In this document: positions 1 to 5,356 of the stretch, one piece after another
Layout: each line of letters opens with the position of its first letter
Position numbering within the stretch: position 1 is the first letter of the stretch
Assembly: GCF_003334315.1 (NCBI RefSeq)
Contig: NZ_QOWR01000075.1
Length of the DNA: 15,366 nucleotides
Direction: 5' to 3' (one strand)
Source: Escherichia coli
GTDB lineage: Bacteria > Pseudomonadota > Gammaproteobacteria > Enterobacterales > Enterobacteriaceae
Program-made: the position numbers and the translations under genes
The notes under the pieces: model-generated
Seen by the model: the letters and a program-made list of their open reading frames with translations, nothing else
Databases searched by the model: none
What the model was told of the DNA's origin: nothing

Positions 1-105
1 ATTATATCGAATGTGATTACAATCGGTGGCGGCGGCACAGTTGGTGTGGCGGCCTCAGTCCGGAACAATTTGAAAACAAGAACCTCGCTTAGGCCTGTGT
101 CCATA

Positions 106-483
106 TTACGTGGGTAGGATCAGATCAGGAACAGCTTTAACAGTAGCTTCTTGTTGTGTCTTGGCTTCTTGTCTAGCTTCTTCTTGTGGAATATCTACCA
201 CTTGATAGACATTAGAACTTCCTGGTCGTGCATCTTTTATAATTAACCCCATTTCGAGCAATTTCTTAACCCTTTCCTCTGCTGCTCTTGGTGTTATGCC
301 AAAAACATCGCCTATCTTAGCGTAAGAGGGAAATGCACGATCAAACCCTTTCAGATAGCAGTAAAGATTTTTAGCACTATCTGTAAATTTATGCCCGTTT
401 ACTTGGCTTATTTTTAGAATCCACATAGGAACTTTTACAAATTGTTCTTCATTAATCATTAAAAATCTCCTTGATGTAATCAC
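106..483 (-). CDS. HTH_36-like winged-helix DNA-binding protein, 125 aa (putative replication-initiator-like or regulatory protein of the element)
   Basis: ORF MITSRRFLMINEEQFVKVPMWILK...; the central segment SAKNLYCYLKGFDRAFPSYAKIGDVFGITPRAAEERVKKLLEMGLI has the pattern I associate with the HTH_36 family found in phage/plasmid Rep-like proteins. Strong RBS: the minus strand reads AAGGAGA about 7 nt before the ATG. Last gene of a tightly packed three-gene operon. Confidence 0.55.
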   Translation of the reverse strand: MITSRRFLMINEEQFVKVPMWILKISQVNGHKFTDSAKNLYCYLKGFDRAFPSYAKIGDVFGITPRAAEERVKKLLEMGLIIKDARPGSSNVYQVVDIPQEEARQEAKTQQEATVKAVPDLILPT

Positions 484-512
484 GCTCTATGGCGCTACTA
501 TGGTGATAAAAA

Positions 513-683
513 TCACTTGCTTTTATTTGAGAGTGTTTCAGCCTCTCTTTTCAACATATCAAGAATGTAATCTGTGACAGTGATACGTCTACTTCTGGCT
601 TCTTTAAATAACACCTGAAATACTTCATCAGGAATATGAAAGCAAGTGCGTGGTTGTCTTTTCTTTTCTGTAGTTTCGCTCAT
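513..683 (-). CDS. Small ribbon-helix-helix-like (CopG/Arc-type) protein, 56 aa; absent from the supplied ORF track (below length cutoff)
   Basis: Hand translation of the minus strand: MSETTEKKRQPRTCFHIPDEVFQVLFKEARSRRITVTDYILDMLKREAETLSNKSK, stop TGA (complement at 513-515). The pattern basic N-terminus, beta-strand (TCFHIPDEV), helix (FQVLFKEARSRR), helix (ITVTDYILDMLK) is RHH-like. Strong RBS AAGGAG 6 nt upstream; 19-nt gap to the upstream gene and 29-nt gap to the downstream gene. Confidence 0.35.
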   Translation of the reverse strand: MSETTEKKRQPRTCFHIPDEVFQVLFKEARSRRITVTDYILDMLKREAETLSNKSK

Positions 684-702
684 AGTTTTCTCCTTCTATT
701 CT

Positions 703-891
703 TTACTCTGTTTCAGATTCTTTTTCATTTTTTCTTAATTCATCAATAATCTTGAGTGCTTCATTGAAGCAAGCTGCTCGCTCTGGATAACCTCGACTCC
801 TTGCCATATTACGATTCATTACTATTTGGTGGCGTGTAAGCTCACCTTTTTTAAATGCCGCGACAACGTGTTCCGATGTGAACCATTTCAT
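703..891 (-). CDS. Hypothetical small protein, 62 aa; first gene of the three-gene operon
   Basis: ORF MKWFTSEHVVAAFKKGELTRHQIVMNRNMARSRGYPERAACFNEALKIIDELRKNEKESETE with a strong RBS (minus strand TAAGGAGTTTTTT then ATG). I do not recognise a family. Confidence 0.4.
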   Translation of the reverse strand: MKWFTSEHVVAAFKKGELTRHQIVMNRNMARSRGYPERAACFNEALKIIDELRKNEKESETE

Positions 892-1122
892 AAAAAACTC
901 CTTATTCAGTTAAAAGAAAAACACCTTGCAAGCCTGACGGCTTCAAAGTGCATTGATTTTGATTATTTAGAGAAGAATGTTTTTCTGTCCCTCTAATACC
1001 TATTATTACATATAAAGAAACATTTGTCAATACCTTTTCACAAAAAATCTGATCTTTTTCATGTACTTACATTTTTTCTTAGCAATTCGTGCTCTTCTGT
1101 GTAGTGCTATTCTTCCTTATTG

Positions 1123-1145
1123 TCTAAAACGCTCTAAAACGCGTT
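1123..1145. repeat. Tandem 10-bp direct repeat tctaaaacgc x2 running into the palindrome AACGCGTT
   Basis: Seen directly: tctaaaacgc at 1123-1132 and 1133-1142, followed by a degenerate third unit (gttctaacga). Lies in the non-coding region upstream of the minus-strand operon. Confidence 0.4.
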
Positions 1146-1461
1146 CTAACGAGGTTTTGATAAAAGCAATACATTCCCTTATGTAATGGCTGTTTAGCTC
1201 GCCAGAGGCTTATTTAAGGGGCTTATTTTGTATTTGTTAGGTATATGAAAAGGTGATGGTAGATATAAGATAGAGAGTCACTTTATAAAACGCTCTGTAA
1301 AGCCCTGTAGTGAGTTTATATATGTAGGCAATGCGTTTCCATTCCCTACCCTGCTTAATGCTGTTAGAGAAGCATTTAGACCCCTTATTTTTAATTACCT
1401 AAAGTATCCTCTATACATTCCTGTTATGAAACACCTCTGAATCCTTCATAAAACACATTAT

Positions 1462-1517
1462 GACGCAAAGAACACTTTTCTAAGGTGATTCCCTTCCTGA
1501 ATGCTGTTTCTTGCGTC
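1462..1517. repeat. Imperfect inverted repeat, 13-nt arms (gacgcaaagaaca ... tgtttcttgcgtc), 30-nt spacer
   Basis: Seen directly; 11 of 13 positions are complementary. Possible operator or RNA hairpin. Confidence 0.4.
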
Positions 1518-1560
1518 AAAGAGCTACACAGAGCTTATAAAGCTATTATTAATAATAAAG

Positions 1561-1620
1561 TAGACAAAGTAAGTAAGATAAGTAAGTAAGATAACTAAGA
1601 TAGATAAGATTAATAAGATC
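1561..1620. repeat. Degenerate AT-rich short tandem repeat (aagtaag / ataagat units)
   Basis: Seen directly: aagtaagataagtaagtaagataactaagatagataagattaataagatc. Confidence 0.6.
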
Positions 1621-1630
1621 AGAATTCTCT

Positions 1631-1660
1631 TTCGGTGTCGCCTCTGGCTTTTCCACCGAA
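1631..1660. other. Hairpin-forming inverted repeat ttcggtg-N16-caccgaa
   Basis: Seen directly: 7-bp perfect arms with a T-rich loop (tcgcctctggcttttc), located just before the first 42-bp direct repeat. Confidence 0.35.
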
Positions 1661-1663
1661 AAC

Positions 1664-1828
1664 AATTACACAACTACAGAGAATAACGAGAGTTATTAAA
1701 TGTAGAAAGTGGAATTGTATTGAGGCTTAGTGAAATTACACGAGGAAAGCAGAGTGTAATTGAGCTTTAGCCGCTCTCTCTTCGAGTAATTACACAACTA
1801 CAGAGAATAACAGAGTTATTAAATGTAG
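1664..1828. repeat. Pair of 41/42-bp direct repeats (aattacacaactacagagaataac(g)agagttattaaatgtag) about 124 bp apart
   Basis: Seen directly: copy 1 at 1664-1705, copy 2 at 1788-1828, differing by a single g indel. Each contains the short palindrome aataac...gttatt and is followed by similar sequence (gaaagtggaatt / gagggtaatt). Confidence 0.7.
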
Positions 1829-1917
1829 GAGGGTAATTAAGAGTTAGAGAGAGTTAACACATAAGCAATCAGTATGATTGGTTAGGTGATTACTCTTCTG
1901 CGCACAGCGCAATAGTA

Positions 1918-1960
1918 TTTCTTCGTGGGCGTTACCGCCAACGATAGTTACACGAAGAAA
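1918..1960. other. Strong stem-loop: 10-bp perfect inverted repeat tttcttcgtg / cacgaagaaa enclosing a nested ggcg-ttac-cgcc hairpin, within a locally GC-richer segment (about 1860-2075); candidate structured RNA or protein-binding site
   Basis: Seen directly. The 75-codon minus-strand ORF over this segment has no obvious RBS or protein-like composition, so I favour a structural element over a CDS. Confidence 0.4.
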
Positions 1961-2128
1961 GTAACGCTTTGCTTTCGGTGTGAGCGGAACGGGCCAGCCA
2001 CGAAGCCCAAAGGTAGCGGAGTAAGGCTGCTTGCCAGAGAGTGAAGCTAACGCCGGAAGGCAAAAGATCATATAAATAAATATATAATATTATAATTTAA
2101 TAAGTAATTTAATAAATGATCTAATAGG

Positions 2129-2262
2129 TAACAGAATTCTGTGGGGGTGTCTAACAGTTTTCTGTGGGGGTGTCTAACAGAATTCTGTTAGGGTGGGGTA
2201 ACAGAATTTTGTTAGGGTAAAAATCTCTTTAAAAGTTAAGATTAACAGAATTCTGTGGGGGG
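2129..2262. repeat. Repeat family A: palindrome (t)AACAGAATTCTGT(T) followed by G-runs (gtggggg); direct repeat ctgtgggggtgtctaacag x2
   Basis: Seen directly: copies starting near 2129, 2176, 2199 (degenerate, aattttgtt) and 2243, with a fifth at 2538. ACAGAATTCTGT is a perfect 12-bp palindrome, a likely dimeric DNA-binding-protein site. Confidence 0.7.
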
Positions 2263-2325
2263 TAGCTCACAGTGACCTACCCCCTAGTTCACTATGACCT
2301 ACCCCCCTAGGTCACAGTGACCTAT
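2263..2325. repeat. Iteron cluster 1 (family B): three roughly 21-bp units tag(c/t)tcac(a/t)(g/a)tgacctacccc; the third is the perfect palindrome AGGTCACAGTGACCT
   Basis: Seen directly: 2263-2284, 2285-2307 and 2307-2325; the palindrome is at 2309-2323. Confidence 0.7.
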
Positions 2326-2349
2326 ATAGTATAAAGAATATTATTTATA

Positions 2350-2377
2350 TTATTTAATTATAGTATTTAATTATAGT
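2350..2377. repeat. AT-rich 13-bp tandem repeat (atttaattatagt x2) in a roughly 50-bp A+T tract; candidate DNA-unwinding element
   Basis: Seen directly, lying between iteron families B and C. Iterons next to an AT-rich tract is the classical origin layout. Confidence 0.45.
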
Positions 2378-2385
2378 ATTGGTGG

Positions 2386-2483
2386 AACTCATTTCCTAGG
2401 TAGGTAGGAACTAATTTCCTAAGTAGGTAGGAAACCACTTCCTAGGTTACTTCCTAAATAGATCGGAAATCATTTCCTAGGTG
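2386..2483. repeat. Repeat family C: (a/c)tttcctagg(taggtagga) units at roughly 22-bp spacing (4-5 copies); contains the palindrome CCTAGG
   Basis: Seen directly: tttcctagg at 2392, tttcctaag at 2414, cttcctagg at 2438, cttcctaaa at 2451, tttcctagg at 2473. Confidence 0.6.
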
Positions 2484-2498
2484 TTATTTATACTTATC

Positions 2499-2535
2499 GG
2501 GTATCAGTTTTGATAGGGGTATCAGACTTGATAGG
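2499..2535. repeat. Repeat family D: gggtatcag(tt/ac)ttgatag x2 in tandem, 19-bp period
   Basis: Seen directly at 2499-2516 and 2517/2518-2535. Confidence 0.6.
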
Positions 2536-2556
2536 GGTAACAGAATTCTGTGGGGG

Positions 2557-2618
2557 TAGTTCACTATGACCTACCCCTAGTTCACTGTGAGCTACCCCTA
2601 GTTCACTGTGAGCTACCG
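2557..2618. repeat. Iteron cluster 2 (family B): three head-to-tail 21-bp units tagttcac(t)(a/g)tga(c/g)ctacc(cc)
   Basis: Seen directly: 2557-2577, 2578-2598 and 2599-2618, with exact 21-bp periodicity (two helical turns), as expected for Rep-binding iterons. Confidence 0.75.
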
Positions 2619-2712
2619 TTACATCCAATCATCTGTCGATGTAACATATCGTTACTACCAACTTTCTTACAAAGAGCATTTCAGATAGCTGAATGTAACC
2701 TCTCGTTACATC
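2617..2712. repeat. Palindrome-rich block: gttacatc-N12-gatgtaac, gtaac-atatc-gttac, and cgttacatcc repeated (2617 and 2703)
   Basis: Seen directly. Confidence 0.5.
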
Positions 2713-2729
2713 CATTTGTCACATAGCAC

Positions 2730-3210
2730 TCTGTGTAATGCCTTTCTATGTGTGTGCCATAATCCCCCTATATTCCCTGTGTAAATCATAGAATAATGCT
2801 CTCTATTCCCTGTGTAATTCCCTACTAAAAATCAATGAAAAAGTAGCTTAAAGTTGCAATTCTTACTTTCTTCACTTTTACATCACTTTCGCAAAGCCTT
2901 GTGTAATGCGGCTTACAGAGCACCATCAGAAATTGTTGGCTAAAAATTATTCTGCTTGTTTCTGAACGAGTTTTCTCGTTTGTGCAAATTTTAAAATTTA
3001 TTTTGTTTTTACAGCCTTATTTCGTGTAATGCGTGGCATAGCAAGCCCTTTTCTTGTGTTGTCAAGACATTTGGCAACGTTCAAACATCTGTTTAGAAAT
3101 GCCAAATTGTTGATCTAACAAATAAACCTGTATAAACAGAACACCATTTAATCTATTCCCCTGTGTATCCATTAGGCATACCAAATGAATACAGCTAAAT
3201 CGTGTAATAT
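2730..3210. repeat. Dispersed motif (c)tgtgtaat(g) recurring about 7 times, including the direct repeat tattccctgtgtaa x2 (2770-2818)
   Basis: Seen directly near 2733, 2779, 2811, 2901, 3026, 3161 (variant tgtgtatcc) and 3203. The region is non-coding and leads up to the recombinase gene. Confidence 0.45.
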
Positions 3211-3262
3211 TCCGTACCCATAAGGCTTGAAACAGACCAAATGAATACGGTATACTCATTTG
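3169..3262. promoter_or_regulatory. Putative res/hix-like recombinase binding region: duplicated motif cat(t/a)aggc..accaaatgaatac(a/g)g plus the palindrome caaatga-N11-tcatttg
   Basis: Seen directly: copy 1 at 3169-3194, copy 2 at 3217-3250, palindrome at 3238-3262 with the palindromic core gtatac. The location immediately 5' of a resolvase-family gene is where res sites sit in Tn3-family and plasmid resolution systems. Confidence 0.4.
3227..3256 (+). promoter_or_regulatory. Putative sigma70 promoter of the recombinase gene (-35 TTGAAA, 18-bp spacer, -10 TATACT)
   Basis: -35 at 3227-3232, -10 at 3251-3256, about 45 nt upstream of the ATG at 3302. The -10 lies inside the palindrome, which would suggest autoregulation. 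Sequence-pattern inference only. Confidence 0.35.
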
Positions 3263-3301
3263 CATTTAAGTAGTGCCAAATCGACACATTAAGAGGATTT
3301 T

Positions 3302-3841
3302 ATGAGCAATATCGGTTATAAGCGTGTGAGCACTGTAGATCAGAACACTGATCGCCAGCTTGCAGGAGTAACTCTCGATAAAGTCTTTGAAGATAAGCTG
3401 TCTGGTAAAGACACTAACCGCCCAGGCTTACAAGCGTGTTTAGCCTATCTGAGAGAAGGCGACACCTTACACGTGCACTCTCTCGACCGTTTAGGACGTA
3501 ACACCTTAGACATCCTTGCTTTAGTTGAACAACTTAATAATCGAGGTGTAATTGTTCGATTTCACAAAGAAGGAATCATTGCAGACATTACAAGCGCGAT
3601 GGGAAAGATGATGCTTACGATGTTGTCGGCAGTTGCAACGTGTGAACGTGAACTGATGTTAGAACGTAAACGAGAAGCGCAAGCCGTCAATCCTACAAAA
3701 CGTGGTAATGGAAAAGCAGTGGATCGAGAAGGTATAAAGAAAGCCCTTTCTGATGGCCTGTCAGTGCGTAAAACCGCCGAGAGCTTTAATGTTGCTCCTT
3801 CAACGGTGCAACGTATCAAGAAGGAAGAAGAGGAGGCGTAA
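3302..3841 (+). CDS. Small serine recombinase (resolvase/invertase family), 179 aa
   Basis: N-terminal GYKRVSTVDQ is the catalytic-serine motif of serine recombinases. Conserved blocks FEDKLSG, RPGL, LDRLGR and SAVATCERELMLER resemble the Tn3 TnpR, Gin and Hin layout. A C-terminal HTH is present (LSVRKTAESFNVAPSTVQRIKK). RBS AAGAGGA lies 5 nt upstream. Not identical to the Pin or Gin sequences I recall. Confidence 0.85.
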   Translation: MSNIGYKRVSTVDQNTDRQLAGVTLDKVFEDKLSGKDTNRPGLQACLAYLREGDTLHVHSLDRLGRNTLDILALVEQLNNRGVIVRFHKEGIIADITSAMGKMMLTMLSAVATCERELMLERKREAQAVNPTKRGNGKAVDREGIKKALSDGLSVRKTAESFNVAPSTVQRIKKEEEEA

Positions 3842-3850
3842 TGCCTCCTT
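3829..3850 (+). terminator. Possible hairpin at the recombinase stop (ggaggcg-taa-tgcctcc)
   Basis: 6-bp GC stem spanning the stop codon, followed by ttgatattt. Weak T-tract, so low confidence. Confidence 0.25.
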
Positions 3851-4077
3851 GATATTTGAGAATTGTCGCTGCGTGGACCTGACGGCGCTGATCTTCTCGT
3901 TAAGCGATGATCACGTATGCGCCGATTTCAGAGAAAAAGACAGTAACTGAACTCACTATGAAGGCTAAACGTATCTTTACACTTGATGAAAACGTTCAAA
4001 AAACAACCTAACCCCAAAATTCAACAAATTGCAACACATTGTTTTTAAAAGAAAATTAAATCTACATCAAATATTGG

Positions 4078-4106
4078 TTGACGTAGATTGAGGTGAATAG
4101 TAGACT
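4078..4106 (+). promoter_or_regulatory. Putative promoter for the small hydrophobic ORF (-35 TTGACG, 17-bp spacer, -10 TAGACT)
   Basis: Pattern match only; would give a leader of about 70 nt before the ATG at 4183. Confidence 0.25.
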
Positions 4107-4182
4107 ATTAGGGTAAATTACCACCCTTGTAACATCATTTAATGCATGTTCTAATCTTCCTATCGTAAAACCGGAGGAAGTT

Positions 4183-4341
4183 ATGCATTTACTTTCAAAA
4201 CATCTTCACACTATTCACTTTCTCGTTATTGATGTATTCGTTGTGGCTATTAGTTACCGCATTTGCATCGCTTCCAGTGAAGAGATGGACGCTGTTGCAA
4301 TTATTGCTCAAGCAATGGCGATATTAACTAAACGACTTTAA
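4183..4341 (+). CDS. Small hydrophobic protein, 52 aa (candidate small membrane protein or toxin-like peptide); absent from the ORF track
   Basis: Hand translation: MHLLSKHLHTIHFLVIDVFVVAISYRICIASSEEMDAVAIIAQAMAILTKRL, stop TAA at 4339-4341. Strong RBS GGAGGAAG 5-6 nt upstream. A roughly 20-residue hydrophobic stretch is consistent with one transmembrane helix. Confidence 0.35.
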   Translation: MHLLSKHLHTIHFLVIDVFVVAISYRICIASSEEMDAVAIIAQAMAILTKRL

Positions 4342-4354
4342 TAATTTCACTATC

Positions 4355-4398
4355 AGGCGCATAAACACATCTTTGATCGCTGGATGTGTTATGCGCCT
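4355..4398. terminator. Long near-perfect inverted repeat (aggcgcataaacacatc - N11 - gatgtgttatgcgcct) between the two convergent small ORFs; candidate bidirectional terminator or operator
   Basis: Seen directly: arms at 4355-4371 and 4383-4398, 16 of 17 positions paired with one bulged A. The position between convergent ORFs fits a terminator, though flanking T-tracts are weak. Confidence 0.45.
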
Positions 4399-4407
4399 AC
4401 TGGTGAT

Positions 4408-4560
4408 TCAATCCTTAAGCCATTTCAACTCACTAAGGAGTTTTCTTTCTTCGTTCTCTCGTTGCTTTCGCTCTAGCCAGGCTTTTCCCTCTGGCGTAGA
4501 CAGGAACTTACGAGCGTGAATCTTGCGGTTATTACGTTTTATAGCTGCAATGTTTTTCAT
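4408..4560 (-). CDS. Small basic protein, 50 aa, hypothetical; absent from the ORF track
   Basis: Hand translation of the minus strand: MKNIAAIKRNNRKIHARKFLSTPEGKAWLERKQRENEERKLLSELKWLKD, stop TGA (complement at 4408-4410). A possible RBS (AGAGG) lies upstream. I do not recognise a family. Confidence 0.3.
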   Translation of the reverse strand: MKNIAAIKRNNRKIHARKFLSTPEGKAWLERKQRENEERKLLSELKWLKD

Positions 4561-5166
4561 CGTGTTGCCTCTGTATTCATATGAAAATTAACAAGTTACA
4601 TACTACACAGGGAGACTACGCATAAAACACAATACAAGTAAAGATACATTTTCAAGACAATAGGAGCCATAAAGCGCCTTTGATGGTTATACCAAAAAAT
4701 AAGCGCCGTAGGCGTATCCACTAAAAAGGGCTTTTTCACAAAAGCTATGAAGTCTTAGCAGTTCTTCTCTTATCAGGCACCCGTTGTACTCCGGTGGACG
4801 AAACCGTGCTAGAGCTTGATTCTTTCCCGATCAAGTTAGGTTTTGAAGAGGTGGGCTTTAATCCACTATTGCACTTAAAACTCTTCCCATCATTTAGCCT
4901 GTTTATCCTCTGCAACGTCTCACGACGTGTAGCATCATTGGACACCGCGCCAGGTGTGGAACATCTTGCTAAGAGTTTTGGTAGAAGGTTTAGAGACGGT
5001 GGCACGTCTTCCAGCTTCAAAGGAACTTGTTACGAGGTTGAGCCTGGGAACTACTCGCCCATACGTGTTACACTACCAAAGCCCATAACAACGTATAGGC
5101 GTTTGTAAGTGATAACAGAAGATACAATTTCTTAGAGAAGTTAAGCTAAGTTATTGATTTTCTTGA

Positions 5167-5242
5167 TGGTGCCGATAATAGGAGTCGAACCTACGACCTT
5201 CGCATTACGAATGCGCTGCTCTACCAACTGAGCTATATCGGC
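5167..5242 (-). tRNA. thrW: tRNA-Thr (anticodon CGU), thrW-like
   Basis: The minus strand reads GCCGATATAGCTCAGTTGGTAGAGCAGCGCATTCGTAATGCGAAGGTCGTAGGTTCGACTCCTATTATCGGCACCA: cloverleaf features, anticodon loop TTCGTAA, encoded CCA. It sits downstream of proA as in E. coli. Confidence 0.95.
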
Positions 5243-5356
5243 CCTGAAAGGACATGTTCACGAACGTGAATCACGGTGGACAAGGTTAAAACTAACCGGG
5301 CGATGCGTCAATGGCCTTGTGAATCAAATGGCTACTTTTGCATCACCCGGTTTTAT

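Follow-up and report, generated by a model that had tools for sequence, protein, structure and literature searches.

A predicted large structured RNA gene at the thrW end of a phage-satellite-like island of Escherichia coli

What does a genomic island carry next to the tRNA gene into which it has inserted, when no protein gene is annotated there? The question is raised by a stretch of Escherichia coli DNA of 15,366 nucleotides (nt), from contig NZ_QOWR01000075.1 of the NCBI RefSeq assembly GCF_003334315.1, hereafter called the window; an island occupies its positions 1-5166 and ends at the threonine tRNA gene thrW, and the 606 base pairs (bp) nearest to this gene, positions 4561-5166, are gene-free. 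Working from the sequence, the original prediction had described here about 570 bp devoid of protein genes at the place where an integrase would be expected, and it had offered three options: an integrase remnant, a structured region close to the attachment (att) site, or an RNA gene. The comparative analysis reported here favors the last one: the segment very probably holds the gene of a structured RNA, encoded on the minus strand, and, set against the other explanations discussed below, the reading that this product is a structured island RNA standing alone has an estimated probability of about 0.7. The segment is also att-proximal and structured, as the second option had it; the integrase remnant is discarded.

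Alignments of the segment with its relatives revealed hairpins whose pairing persists through sequence change, and from these a fold was modeled on the minus strand; it has 16 helices, two of which are pseudoknots, and a core of ∼400 nt that runs from position ∼5100 to 4692, or up to ∼480 nt if the conserved flanks are counted. Base pairs were counted on strand-neutral MAFFT alignments, with two types of control, namely pairing partners slid by 1-3 columns and 500 shuffles. In domain 1, 87.8% of the cells were paired and 13 of the 28 pairs had changed on both sides, with 30-46% and 1-2 pairs in the slid controls; for domain 2, the values were 98.7% and 22 of 55 pairs, with 36-45% and 2-4 pairs in the controls. 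Two covariance models were built from these alignments, and served to realign more sequences, including those of island types C and D and of a Klebsiella clade. Alignments of this kind are biased toward the model, and read with this proviso domain 1 (type C and Klebsiella included) had 86.6% of the cells paired and again 13 of 28 pairs changed on both sides, while domain 2 had 95.9% and 31 of 45 pairs, with 31-40% and 3-8 pairs after sliding. Overall, the slid controls gave 30-47% pairing and 1-8 pairs changed on both sides, and none of the 500 shuffles reached the observed covariation score.

As for the single elements (Table 1), helix P12 has changes on both sides in all five of its pairs, and P13 covaries, yet it is paired in only 83-91% of cases. 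The pseudoknot PK1 occurs in the variants UUUGGUA/UACCAAA, UCAAGUA/CACUUGA and AUUGGGA/UCCCAGA, and its outermost pairs are frequently unpaired. Regarding the second proposed pseudoknot, PK2, its extension CCAG/CUGG was dropped because it needed wobbles on the plus strand; the remaining pairing, GGCUCAA with UUGAAGC, is invariant and is kept as putative only. Automatic procedures were of less use: RNAalifold, applied to the MAFFT alignments of all types, returned messy, strand-ambiguous structures, and the first automatic helix scans were too permissive.

Table 1. Features of the window at and around the gene-free segment, with the modeled helices of the RNA (paired arms separated by a slash).
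Feature	Position	Strand	Evidence or remark
thrW, tRNA-Thr(CGU)	5167-5242	minus	ARAGORN; Rfam tRNA, 71.8 bits; RefSeq context proA-thrW
Spacer, tRNA 3' end to first helix	5101-5166	minus	contains repeat R1
R1, flanking repeat	5119-5131		direct repeat D1; plus-strand sequence AAGATACAATTTC
RNA domain 1	4977-5100	minus	modeled helices P1, P1b, P2, P3, PK1
P1, long hairpin	5100-5092/5065-5057	minus	extension P1b, 5089-5086/5070-5067
P2	5056-5054/5036-5034	minus	closes conserved 17-nt loop UAGUUnCCAGGCUCAAn
P3	5009-5005/4998-4994	minus	domain 1 model
PK1, pseudoknot	5080-5074 (P1 loop)/4983-4977	minus	domain 1 model
RNA domain 2	4753-4974	minus	enclosed by long-range helix P4, 4974-4967/4760-4753
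P5	4957-4953/4946-4942	minus	domain 2 model
P6	4928-4924/4919-4915	minus	GUGA loop
Conserved junction GAUAAACAGGCnnAAUGnUGGGAAGA	∼4906-4881	minus	domain 2
P7/P7b insert (putative helices)	4886-4845	minus	type A only
P8	4835-4830/4820-4815	minus	domain 2 model
P11 (putative helix)	4814-4811/4770-4767	minus	domain 2 model
H-type pseudoknot, P9 (putative) and P10	4806-4803/4795-4792 and 4799-4796/4782-4779	minus	domain 2 model
RNA 3' part	4692-4745	minus	P12, P13, U6
P12, hairpin	4745-4740/4735-4730	minus	GNRA loop: GUGA in the window, GCGA in types B and E
P13, short GC hairpin	4714-4711/4707-4704	minus	followed by U6 at 4699-4694
Conserved tail past the U-tract	4640-4691	minus	alignments; small hairpin GGUAUAACC, GGCUCCUAUUGUC, R2
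R2, flanking repeat	4641-4653		direct repeat D1; plus-strand sequence AAGATACATTTTC
Chance ORF, 91 aa, TTG start	4745-5020	minus	inside the RNA gene; not a gene
Chance ORF, 104 aa, GTG start	4794-5108	plus	antisense to the RNA; not a gene
ORF50, conserved 50-aa basic protein	4408-4560	minus	KRNNRKIHARKFL.TPEGKAWL; RefSeq CDS WP_000788776.1
Small serine recombinase, 179 aa	3302-3841	plus	Resolvase domain and helix-turn-helix; Pfam PF00239, 1.3e-33; context only

The strand was assigned from one-sided changes, because Watson-Crick covariation cannot separate the two strands. Read from the minus strand, the modeled helices hold 56 G·U cells in 13 pairs, versus 16 A·C cells in 6 pairs, which would be G·U on the plus strand; at helix-internal positions, the comparison is 7 pairs versus 1, the latter being a local misalignment. 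The loops of P12 and P6 point to the same strand, with GUGA, GCGA or GNGAU on the minus one, whereas the plus strand would read UCAC or UCGC. Hence, compensatory pairs above control and strand asymmetry with RNA loop motifs, the generic traits of structured RNAs, are both found at this locus, and the comparison places the RNA on the minus strand, in the direction of the tRNA, with a predicted start ∼65 nt past the tRNA 3' end.

These data also bear on the possibility that the hairpins act in the DNA, as a long arm of the attP site with binding sites for integrase or excisionase, as a packaging signal, or as a single-strand origin. The segment does adjoin the att core, the 13-nt direct repeats at its flanks vary by island type, as protein-binding sites would, and past it comes a degenerate version of the tRNA 3' end, which reads CUCCUAUUGUC in the window; a Klebsiella leuX island has 13 nt of this end as an exact copy, GCCTTCGGCACCA. 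However, double-stranded binding sites yield no compensatory change in ∼35 base pairs, pseudoknots and long-range helices, and here the only one-sided changes that persist are those giving G·U on a single strand, namely the one with the GNRA loops. Nor is a single-stranded stage expected, given the theta/iteron-type replication protein and the iteron-like repeats: a fragment of the gene for an O-like replication initiator lies at 106-483, next to a stretch poor in open reading frames (ORFs), and at least four sets of iteron-like tandem repeats of 21-23 nt are found at 2129-2212, 2263-2324, 2384-2447 and 2557-2617. A function of the hairpins in the DNA is considered very improbable.

A further candidate is a protein gene, whether a decayed integrase or a real gene in either of the ORFs that overlap on opposite strands. 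Both ORFs exist where they had been described, one of 91 codons starting with TTG and one of 104 codons starting with GTG, and in many islands inserted at a tRNA gene the integrase is adjacent to it. In an identical copy of the segment, though, the RefSeq annotation is empty from the start of the coding sequence (CDS) of a 50-amino-acid (aa) protein, at position 4560, to the tRNA, so that the absence of protein genes described at the outset is borne out; neither ORF matched a family in the NCBIfam search, and their frames are not conserved. Compared with close relatives, three of the four insertions and deletions (indels) in locus L003 and six of the seven in L004 are off multiples of three; relatives at 92-94% identity already carry frame-breaking indels, so that frames are broken even at 93%, and the longest open frame ranges from 47 to 131 codons across the variants. 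As regards the integrase, seven recombinases served as tblastn queries against the 606-nt target: the serine recombinase of the island itself, a small tyrosine recombinase, and five tyrosine integrases taken from related islands. The best match covered 8 aa with E = 0.21, which is noise; the control worked, because the same tyrosine-integrase queries detected the integrase of L016 at 1e-62 to 1e-82.

Moreover, to expect an integrase on the tRNA side was a wrong premise for this island family. In the intact relatives (L016, L017 and L066; strains NGF1, at tRNA-Gly, F5505-C1, at leuX, and AR_0128, at thrW), the island measures ∼12.3 kb and the tyrosine integrase is tRNA-distal, ∼12 kb from the tRNA, and in a leuX relative a partial tRNA copy lies beyond the distal integrase. 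In strain 90-3040 (L015), whose thrW copy is 100% identical over the segment, the distal part of the island has apparently been lost at an IS3. At the sensitivity of these searches, the tblastn result and the distal integrase of the intact relatives rule out the integrase remnant; the serine recombinase of the window is not the island's integrase either. From the sequence comparisons, none of the reading frames in positions 4561-5166 is a credible protein gene, the overlapping pair having arisen by chance; this leaves a decayed or real protein gene with practically no probability.

The segment is not an ordinary conserved flank of thrW, a result that would have refuted the original prediction by its own terms. 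A survey of 5,426 complete E. coli genomes with a 607-nt query, at a coverage of at least 80%, found it in 478 of them, mostly with at least 99% identity, that is in about one genome in eleven (∼9%); the carriers include the O26:H11 strain 11368 and the O104:H4 strain 2009EL-2050. A more sensitive search gave further copies, with 70-94% identity, at the same unannotated position by leuX, a tRNA-Gly gene or thrW; being recurrent in E. coli, and having diverged copies in the same position, the segment is not chance sequence. Pattern scans retrieved copies from Raoultella, Kosakonia, Citrobacter and an Escherichia sp., and from 39 IMG/VR loci, and a search via the protein of the neighboring ORF50 found it in Klebsiella and Enterobacter. 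The position of the RNA is always the same, between a tRNA gene (Thr, Leu, Gly), or a partial copy of it, and the remaining island, on the strand of the tRNA. Between types A and B, most of the RNA segment can be aligned, in blastn pieces with ∼72-80% identity, whereas the remaining island of the window and the type B locus L004 share three short blastn pieces only, one of them within ORF50; few parts of the island are therefore as well conserved as this segment. By blastn, a phage collection gave no match, and in a plasmid collection two E. coli records matched, one of which (OL790696, 4.8 Mb) is chromosome-sized. The plasmid record NZ_CP126938.1 (166 kb, a plasmid according to PLSDB) has a 100% identical RNA segment at 44527-45017.

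The two domains do not always occur together. Type C (L006 and L008, at leuX), whose 3' half is different, matched the domain 1 model only, with 122 bits; type D (L005 and L016, at tRNA-Gly), whose 5' half is different, matched the domain 2 model only, weakly, with 35 bits. Judging from these single-domain matches, the predicted RNA is modular. In addition, the domain 2 model detected a second, distant copy in the type E element of L055 (11084-11451, plus strand; 25.7 bits, E ∼6e-7); it has the junction AAUAAACAGGC, a GUGAU-capped hairpin, and a hairpin followed by U6, and, sharing the strand of the main RNA, it lies ∼5 kb further downstream in a part poor in ORFs. In the window, the same model, used with filters off on positions 1-4600, including the ORF-poor 2.4 kb, found no second copy.

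The constancy of the RNA across insertion sites is relevant to another hypothesis, that it is a guide or helper in site-specific recombination, comparable to the bridge RNA of IS110 or the seekRNA of IS1111, and takes part in the choice of the tRNA target. Its gene is at the extreme end of the element, beside the recombination site, and in the excised circle it would be opposite to the integrase gene across attP; furthermore, the sequence of the P1 hairpin is common to two otherwise different leuX types, A2 and C. Yet the body of the RNA is 92-94% identical between thrW- and leuX-inserted islands, hence it does not change with the target, and the longest exact run shared with the cognate tRNA, complementary or same-sense, measures 6-9 nt, no more than non-cognate tRNAs and shuffles give (exact runs only were scored). 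Only L064 departs from this, with 13 nt copied from the 3' end of tRNA-Leu, which lie outside the RNA core. Finally, the integrases of these islands are ordinary full-length tyrosine recombinases, and such enzymes need no guide RNA. A guide function is deemed marginally less probable still than a function of the hairpins in the DNA.

The strongest competitor of the stand-alone RNA comes from the gene next to it. ORF50 is the next gene after the RNA and has its orientation; it lies ∼130 nt past the hairpin/U-tract, and its product has an N-terminus rich in arginine and lysine (KRNNRKIHARK). Its 57 homologues are all from Enterobacteriaceae and none has a Pfam domain; the searches of ORF50 against Pfam, PHROG and NCBIfam gave no informative match. 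In the loci fetched via these homologues, the RNA is upstream of the gene in 9 out of 9 cases, after tRNA-Thr or tRNA-Leu, and the consensus scan found no promoter-like site between the RNA and ORF50. The RNA could then be a long cis-acting 5' leader controlling ORF50 and the genes beyond, riboswitch-like, autoregulated, or working by antitermination in the manner of lambda nutL and N; the basic N-terminus together with two GNRA or GNRA-like loops might be seen as reminiscent of N and boxB. As for the features of that system, boxB-like GNRA hairpins are seen, no clear boxA was seen, and the comparison of ORF50 with Pfam and PHROG gave no link to N.

However, the RNA is kept where ORF50 is gone, as in types A2, D and C and in L003. 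In L002 and L005 (types A2 and D) the position is occupied by an unrelated ORF for a lysine-rich basic protein of 99 aa, in L006 (type C) by restriction-modification (R-M) genes, and L003 has no minus-strand ORF of at least 30 aa downstream of the RNA; because the downstream gene is variable, a stand-alone RNA is favored over a leader. Besides, a 400-nt fold with two pseudoknots is far larger than the known nut and put sites, and the unit is closed right past ORF50 by an inverted repeat (arms 4347-4364 and 4389-4406, 18 nt, 83% complementary, 24 nt apart), after which the next genes have the opposite orientation; this repeat separates ORF50 from a convergent ORF of 52 aa (4183-4341) and probably marks the end of both units. 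The leader is on balance unlikely. ORF50 is a real gene and a frequent yet non-obligatory partner of the RNA, and the recurrence of small basic neighbors suggests a ribonucleoprotein.

If the RNA stands alone, how is it transcribed? Consensus scans of three island types found no sigma-70 promoter between the tRNA and P1, and no terminator after the tRNA nor after the RNA. Since there is neither a consensus promoter between the tRNA and the RNA nor a terminator after the tRNA, read-through is proposed: once the island is integrated, transcripts begun at the host tRNA promoter would continue into the RNA, which would be cut free afterward. That this is the main source of the transcript is a tentative proposal, somewhat short of an even chance; the RNA may also have an unrecognized promoter of its own, for which the flanking motif of 13-22 nt (at 4641 and 5119) is one candidate. 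At the other end, P13 and U6 are a possible terminator, though a weak one: the GC stem of type A has 4 bp and is followed by U6, types B and E have longer stems and broken U-tracts, and none of them was flagged by the consensus scan.

Some points weigh against the interpretation given so far. The RNA and its ends are predicted here from sequence comparison, and the comparison covers only ∼5-6 lineages, so that many of the changed cells are inherited and do not count as independent events. The helices were picked by eye in the expectation of a minus-strand RNA, hence some bias in the G·U count; P7, P7b, P9 and P11 show no variation or next to none, and as such are only putative helices. The folding energy of the single sequence is ordinary on both strands (z = -0.8 and -0.7), which means that thermodynamics alone would have missed the RNA. 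The possible terminator is degenerate in type E. Lastly, in most of the IMG/VR loci only a partial tRNA copy adjoins the RNA, and another prophage separates it from the intact tRNA; the tRNA promoter cannot drive the RNA directly in these loci, which makes a promoter of its own possible.

As for the context of the RNA gene, the right part of the window has the E. coli gene order pepD-gpt-frsA-crl-phoE-proBA, followed by tRNA-Thr(CGU), which is identified as thrW because proA and proB adjoin it. By sequence, the 3' part of thrW is the core of the attachment site of the island, on the attL side; partial copies of it adjoin the element in tandem islands, and such a partial copy is also found at the far end of a leuX relative. 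Loci L018-L053 (from IMG/VR), L013 and L054 mostly have only a partial thrW copy beside the island and a larger prophage before the intact tRNA is reached, which corresponds to a tandem occupancy of thrW; the neighboring prophage may explain why these contigs were called viral.

The flanks of the RNA have their own repeats. R1 and R2 form the direct repeat D1, of 13 nt with 92% identity and 478 nt apart, and other islands have short direct repeats, specific to their type, that bracket the RNA gene (4641-4653 and 5119-5131 in the window, 2364-2376 and 2930-2942 in L064, ∼5840-5870 in L004); the sequence of the spacer differs across island types as well. The conserved tail past the U-tract may still belong to the RNA, and in it GGCUCCUAUUGUC resembles the 3' end of tRNA-Thr; the 8-nt match to this tRNA, CTCCTATT, is within chance length, and the scores of local alignments are at the upper end of those given by shuffles. 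The RNA may thus be a small cassette of sorts, with an att-like site on either side, a suggestion from sequence for which the statistical support is modest. The flanking repeats of 13-22 nt were also considered as arm sites of the integrase, and no clear copy was found on the integrase side in type B.

The element as a whole is, from its gene content, a phage-satellite-like integrative element of ∼12.3 kb, present in E. coli, Klebsiella and relatives, of which the RNA is the marker of the tRNA-side end and a core component. The relatives encode an HK97-type capsid protein, with ∼24% identity to those of Pseudomonas myoviruses, a tape-measure-like protein of 611 aa, a Dit-like tail protein and an O-like replication initiator, and they include an ORF-poor stretch of ∼2 kb. 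In the window, ∼2.4 kb (∼900-3300) have no ORF above 75 codons and are 93-96% identical to the tRNA-Gly island of NGF1, and barely alignable with type B islands; type B has a small tyrosine recombinase in place of the small serine recombinase. The slot between RNA/ORF50 and the small recombinase has variable content: a type IIG Eco57I-like R-M enzyme, Abi_C, a STAND/AAA_16 ATPase, a YafQ toxin or an Eco29kI R-M system in L057-L064 and L006, and small ORFs only in the window (∼3850-4400). On this content, the slot looks like a hotspot for defense cargo, and the element resembles a phage satellite. Literature searches for this satellite family, or for a structured RNA adjacent to thrW or leuX, gave nothing relevant.

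Beyond structure, strand, conservation and genomic association, the mode of action can be sketched in conditional terms. The product of the gene would act as RNA, as a stand-alone molecule and possibly in a particle with the small basic protein encoded downstream; its role would be in the life cycle of the island, for example in the control of the leftward gene set, in immunity or in the use of a helper phage, and not in host metabolism. Any one specific molecular role has at best about one chance in four of being the right one. In its boldest form, the hypothesis is that of an undescribed class of large functional RNA, a ribozyme or the core of a ribonucleoprotein, essential to an unnamed group of satellites of Enterobacteriaceae that bear capsid and tail genes; the host tRNA promoter would switch it on upon integration, and it would report or enforce the integrated state, or be used at the arrival of the helper phage. 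In all its parts together, this picture is speculative and more probably wrong than right.

The finding is of interest because bacterial RNAs of several hundred nt with many covarying helices and pseudoknots are rare; to our knowledge, wherever the function has been solved, the RNA has proved to act as a ribozyme, as a guide or as the scaffold of a molecular machine. The RNA described here occurs in the bacterial species that has been studied most, and also in Klebsiella and Enterobacter, hence it is readily testable by standard genetics. It marks an apparently uncharacterized family of islands, whose relatives carry anti-phage cargo (R-M, Abi, STAND-type) in the adjoining slot; it could serve as a marker for locating such islands, and it may bear on their control or mobilization.

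With respect to known systems, the whole window was searched against the 4,227 models of Rfam 15, which include GOLLD, ROOL, HEARO, RNase P, group I and II introns, C4, isrK and riboswitches. At gathering thresholds, the tRNA was the only family to pass, and at E of at most 10 the region 4300-5300 gave few other matches, all far below the thresholds; surveys of bacterial structured RNAs and a survey of E. coli defense islands held nothing corresponding, within an incomplete coverage of the literature.

The IS110 bridge RNA, the IS1111 seekRNA and the omega RNA of IscB and TnpB are also structured RNAs at the end of a mobile element, beside its junction; unlike them, the RNA described here accompanies a classical tyrosine integrase, showed no loops complementary to target or donor when exact runs were scored, and keeps its body constant across tRNA targets. 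The resemblance with lambda nut/boxB and N, and with HK022 put, is in the GNRA or GNRA-like loops that head the unit, followed by a small arginine/lysine-rich protein gene, but the RNA is 5-10 times larger, has pseudoknots and a long-range closing helix, and its partner gene is dispensable in several types.

The CI RNA of P4 and the c4 antisense RNA of P1 and P7 are regulatory RNAs of satellite and phage immunity; they are cut from longer transcripts by host RNases, and are of ∼70-80 nt with a simple fold. What the P4 system has in common with the island is an element of the satellite type, of ∼12 kb, that inserts into tRNA genes such as leuX; unlike P4, the island lacks the alpha primase, Sid, Psu and Delta, and its RNA has no Rfam match to C4 or isrK. 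With the CI RNA, the nut and put RNAs and the guide RNAs of transposons, the likeness is limited to position or loop motifs.

Closer in kind are GOLLD, ROOL, HEARO and OLE, which likewise span hundreds of nt, have many helices with pseudoknots, and are not explained by an adjacent gene. GOLLD (RF01998) and ROOL (RF03087) occur in phage-like elements or prophages and near tRNA genes (PMC5737381). The RNA differs from these two in that it has no Rfam match to them even at E of at most 10, its hosts are Enterobacteriaceae rather than mainly Firmicutes and other phyla, and its proximity to a tRNA derives from integration into the tRNA gene, and not from phage tRNA clusters; the relation is one of kind, not of membership. 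By its sequence, the RNA appears to be a new family, apart from Rfam 15 and from the literature searched, within the known kind of large structured RNAs.

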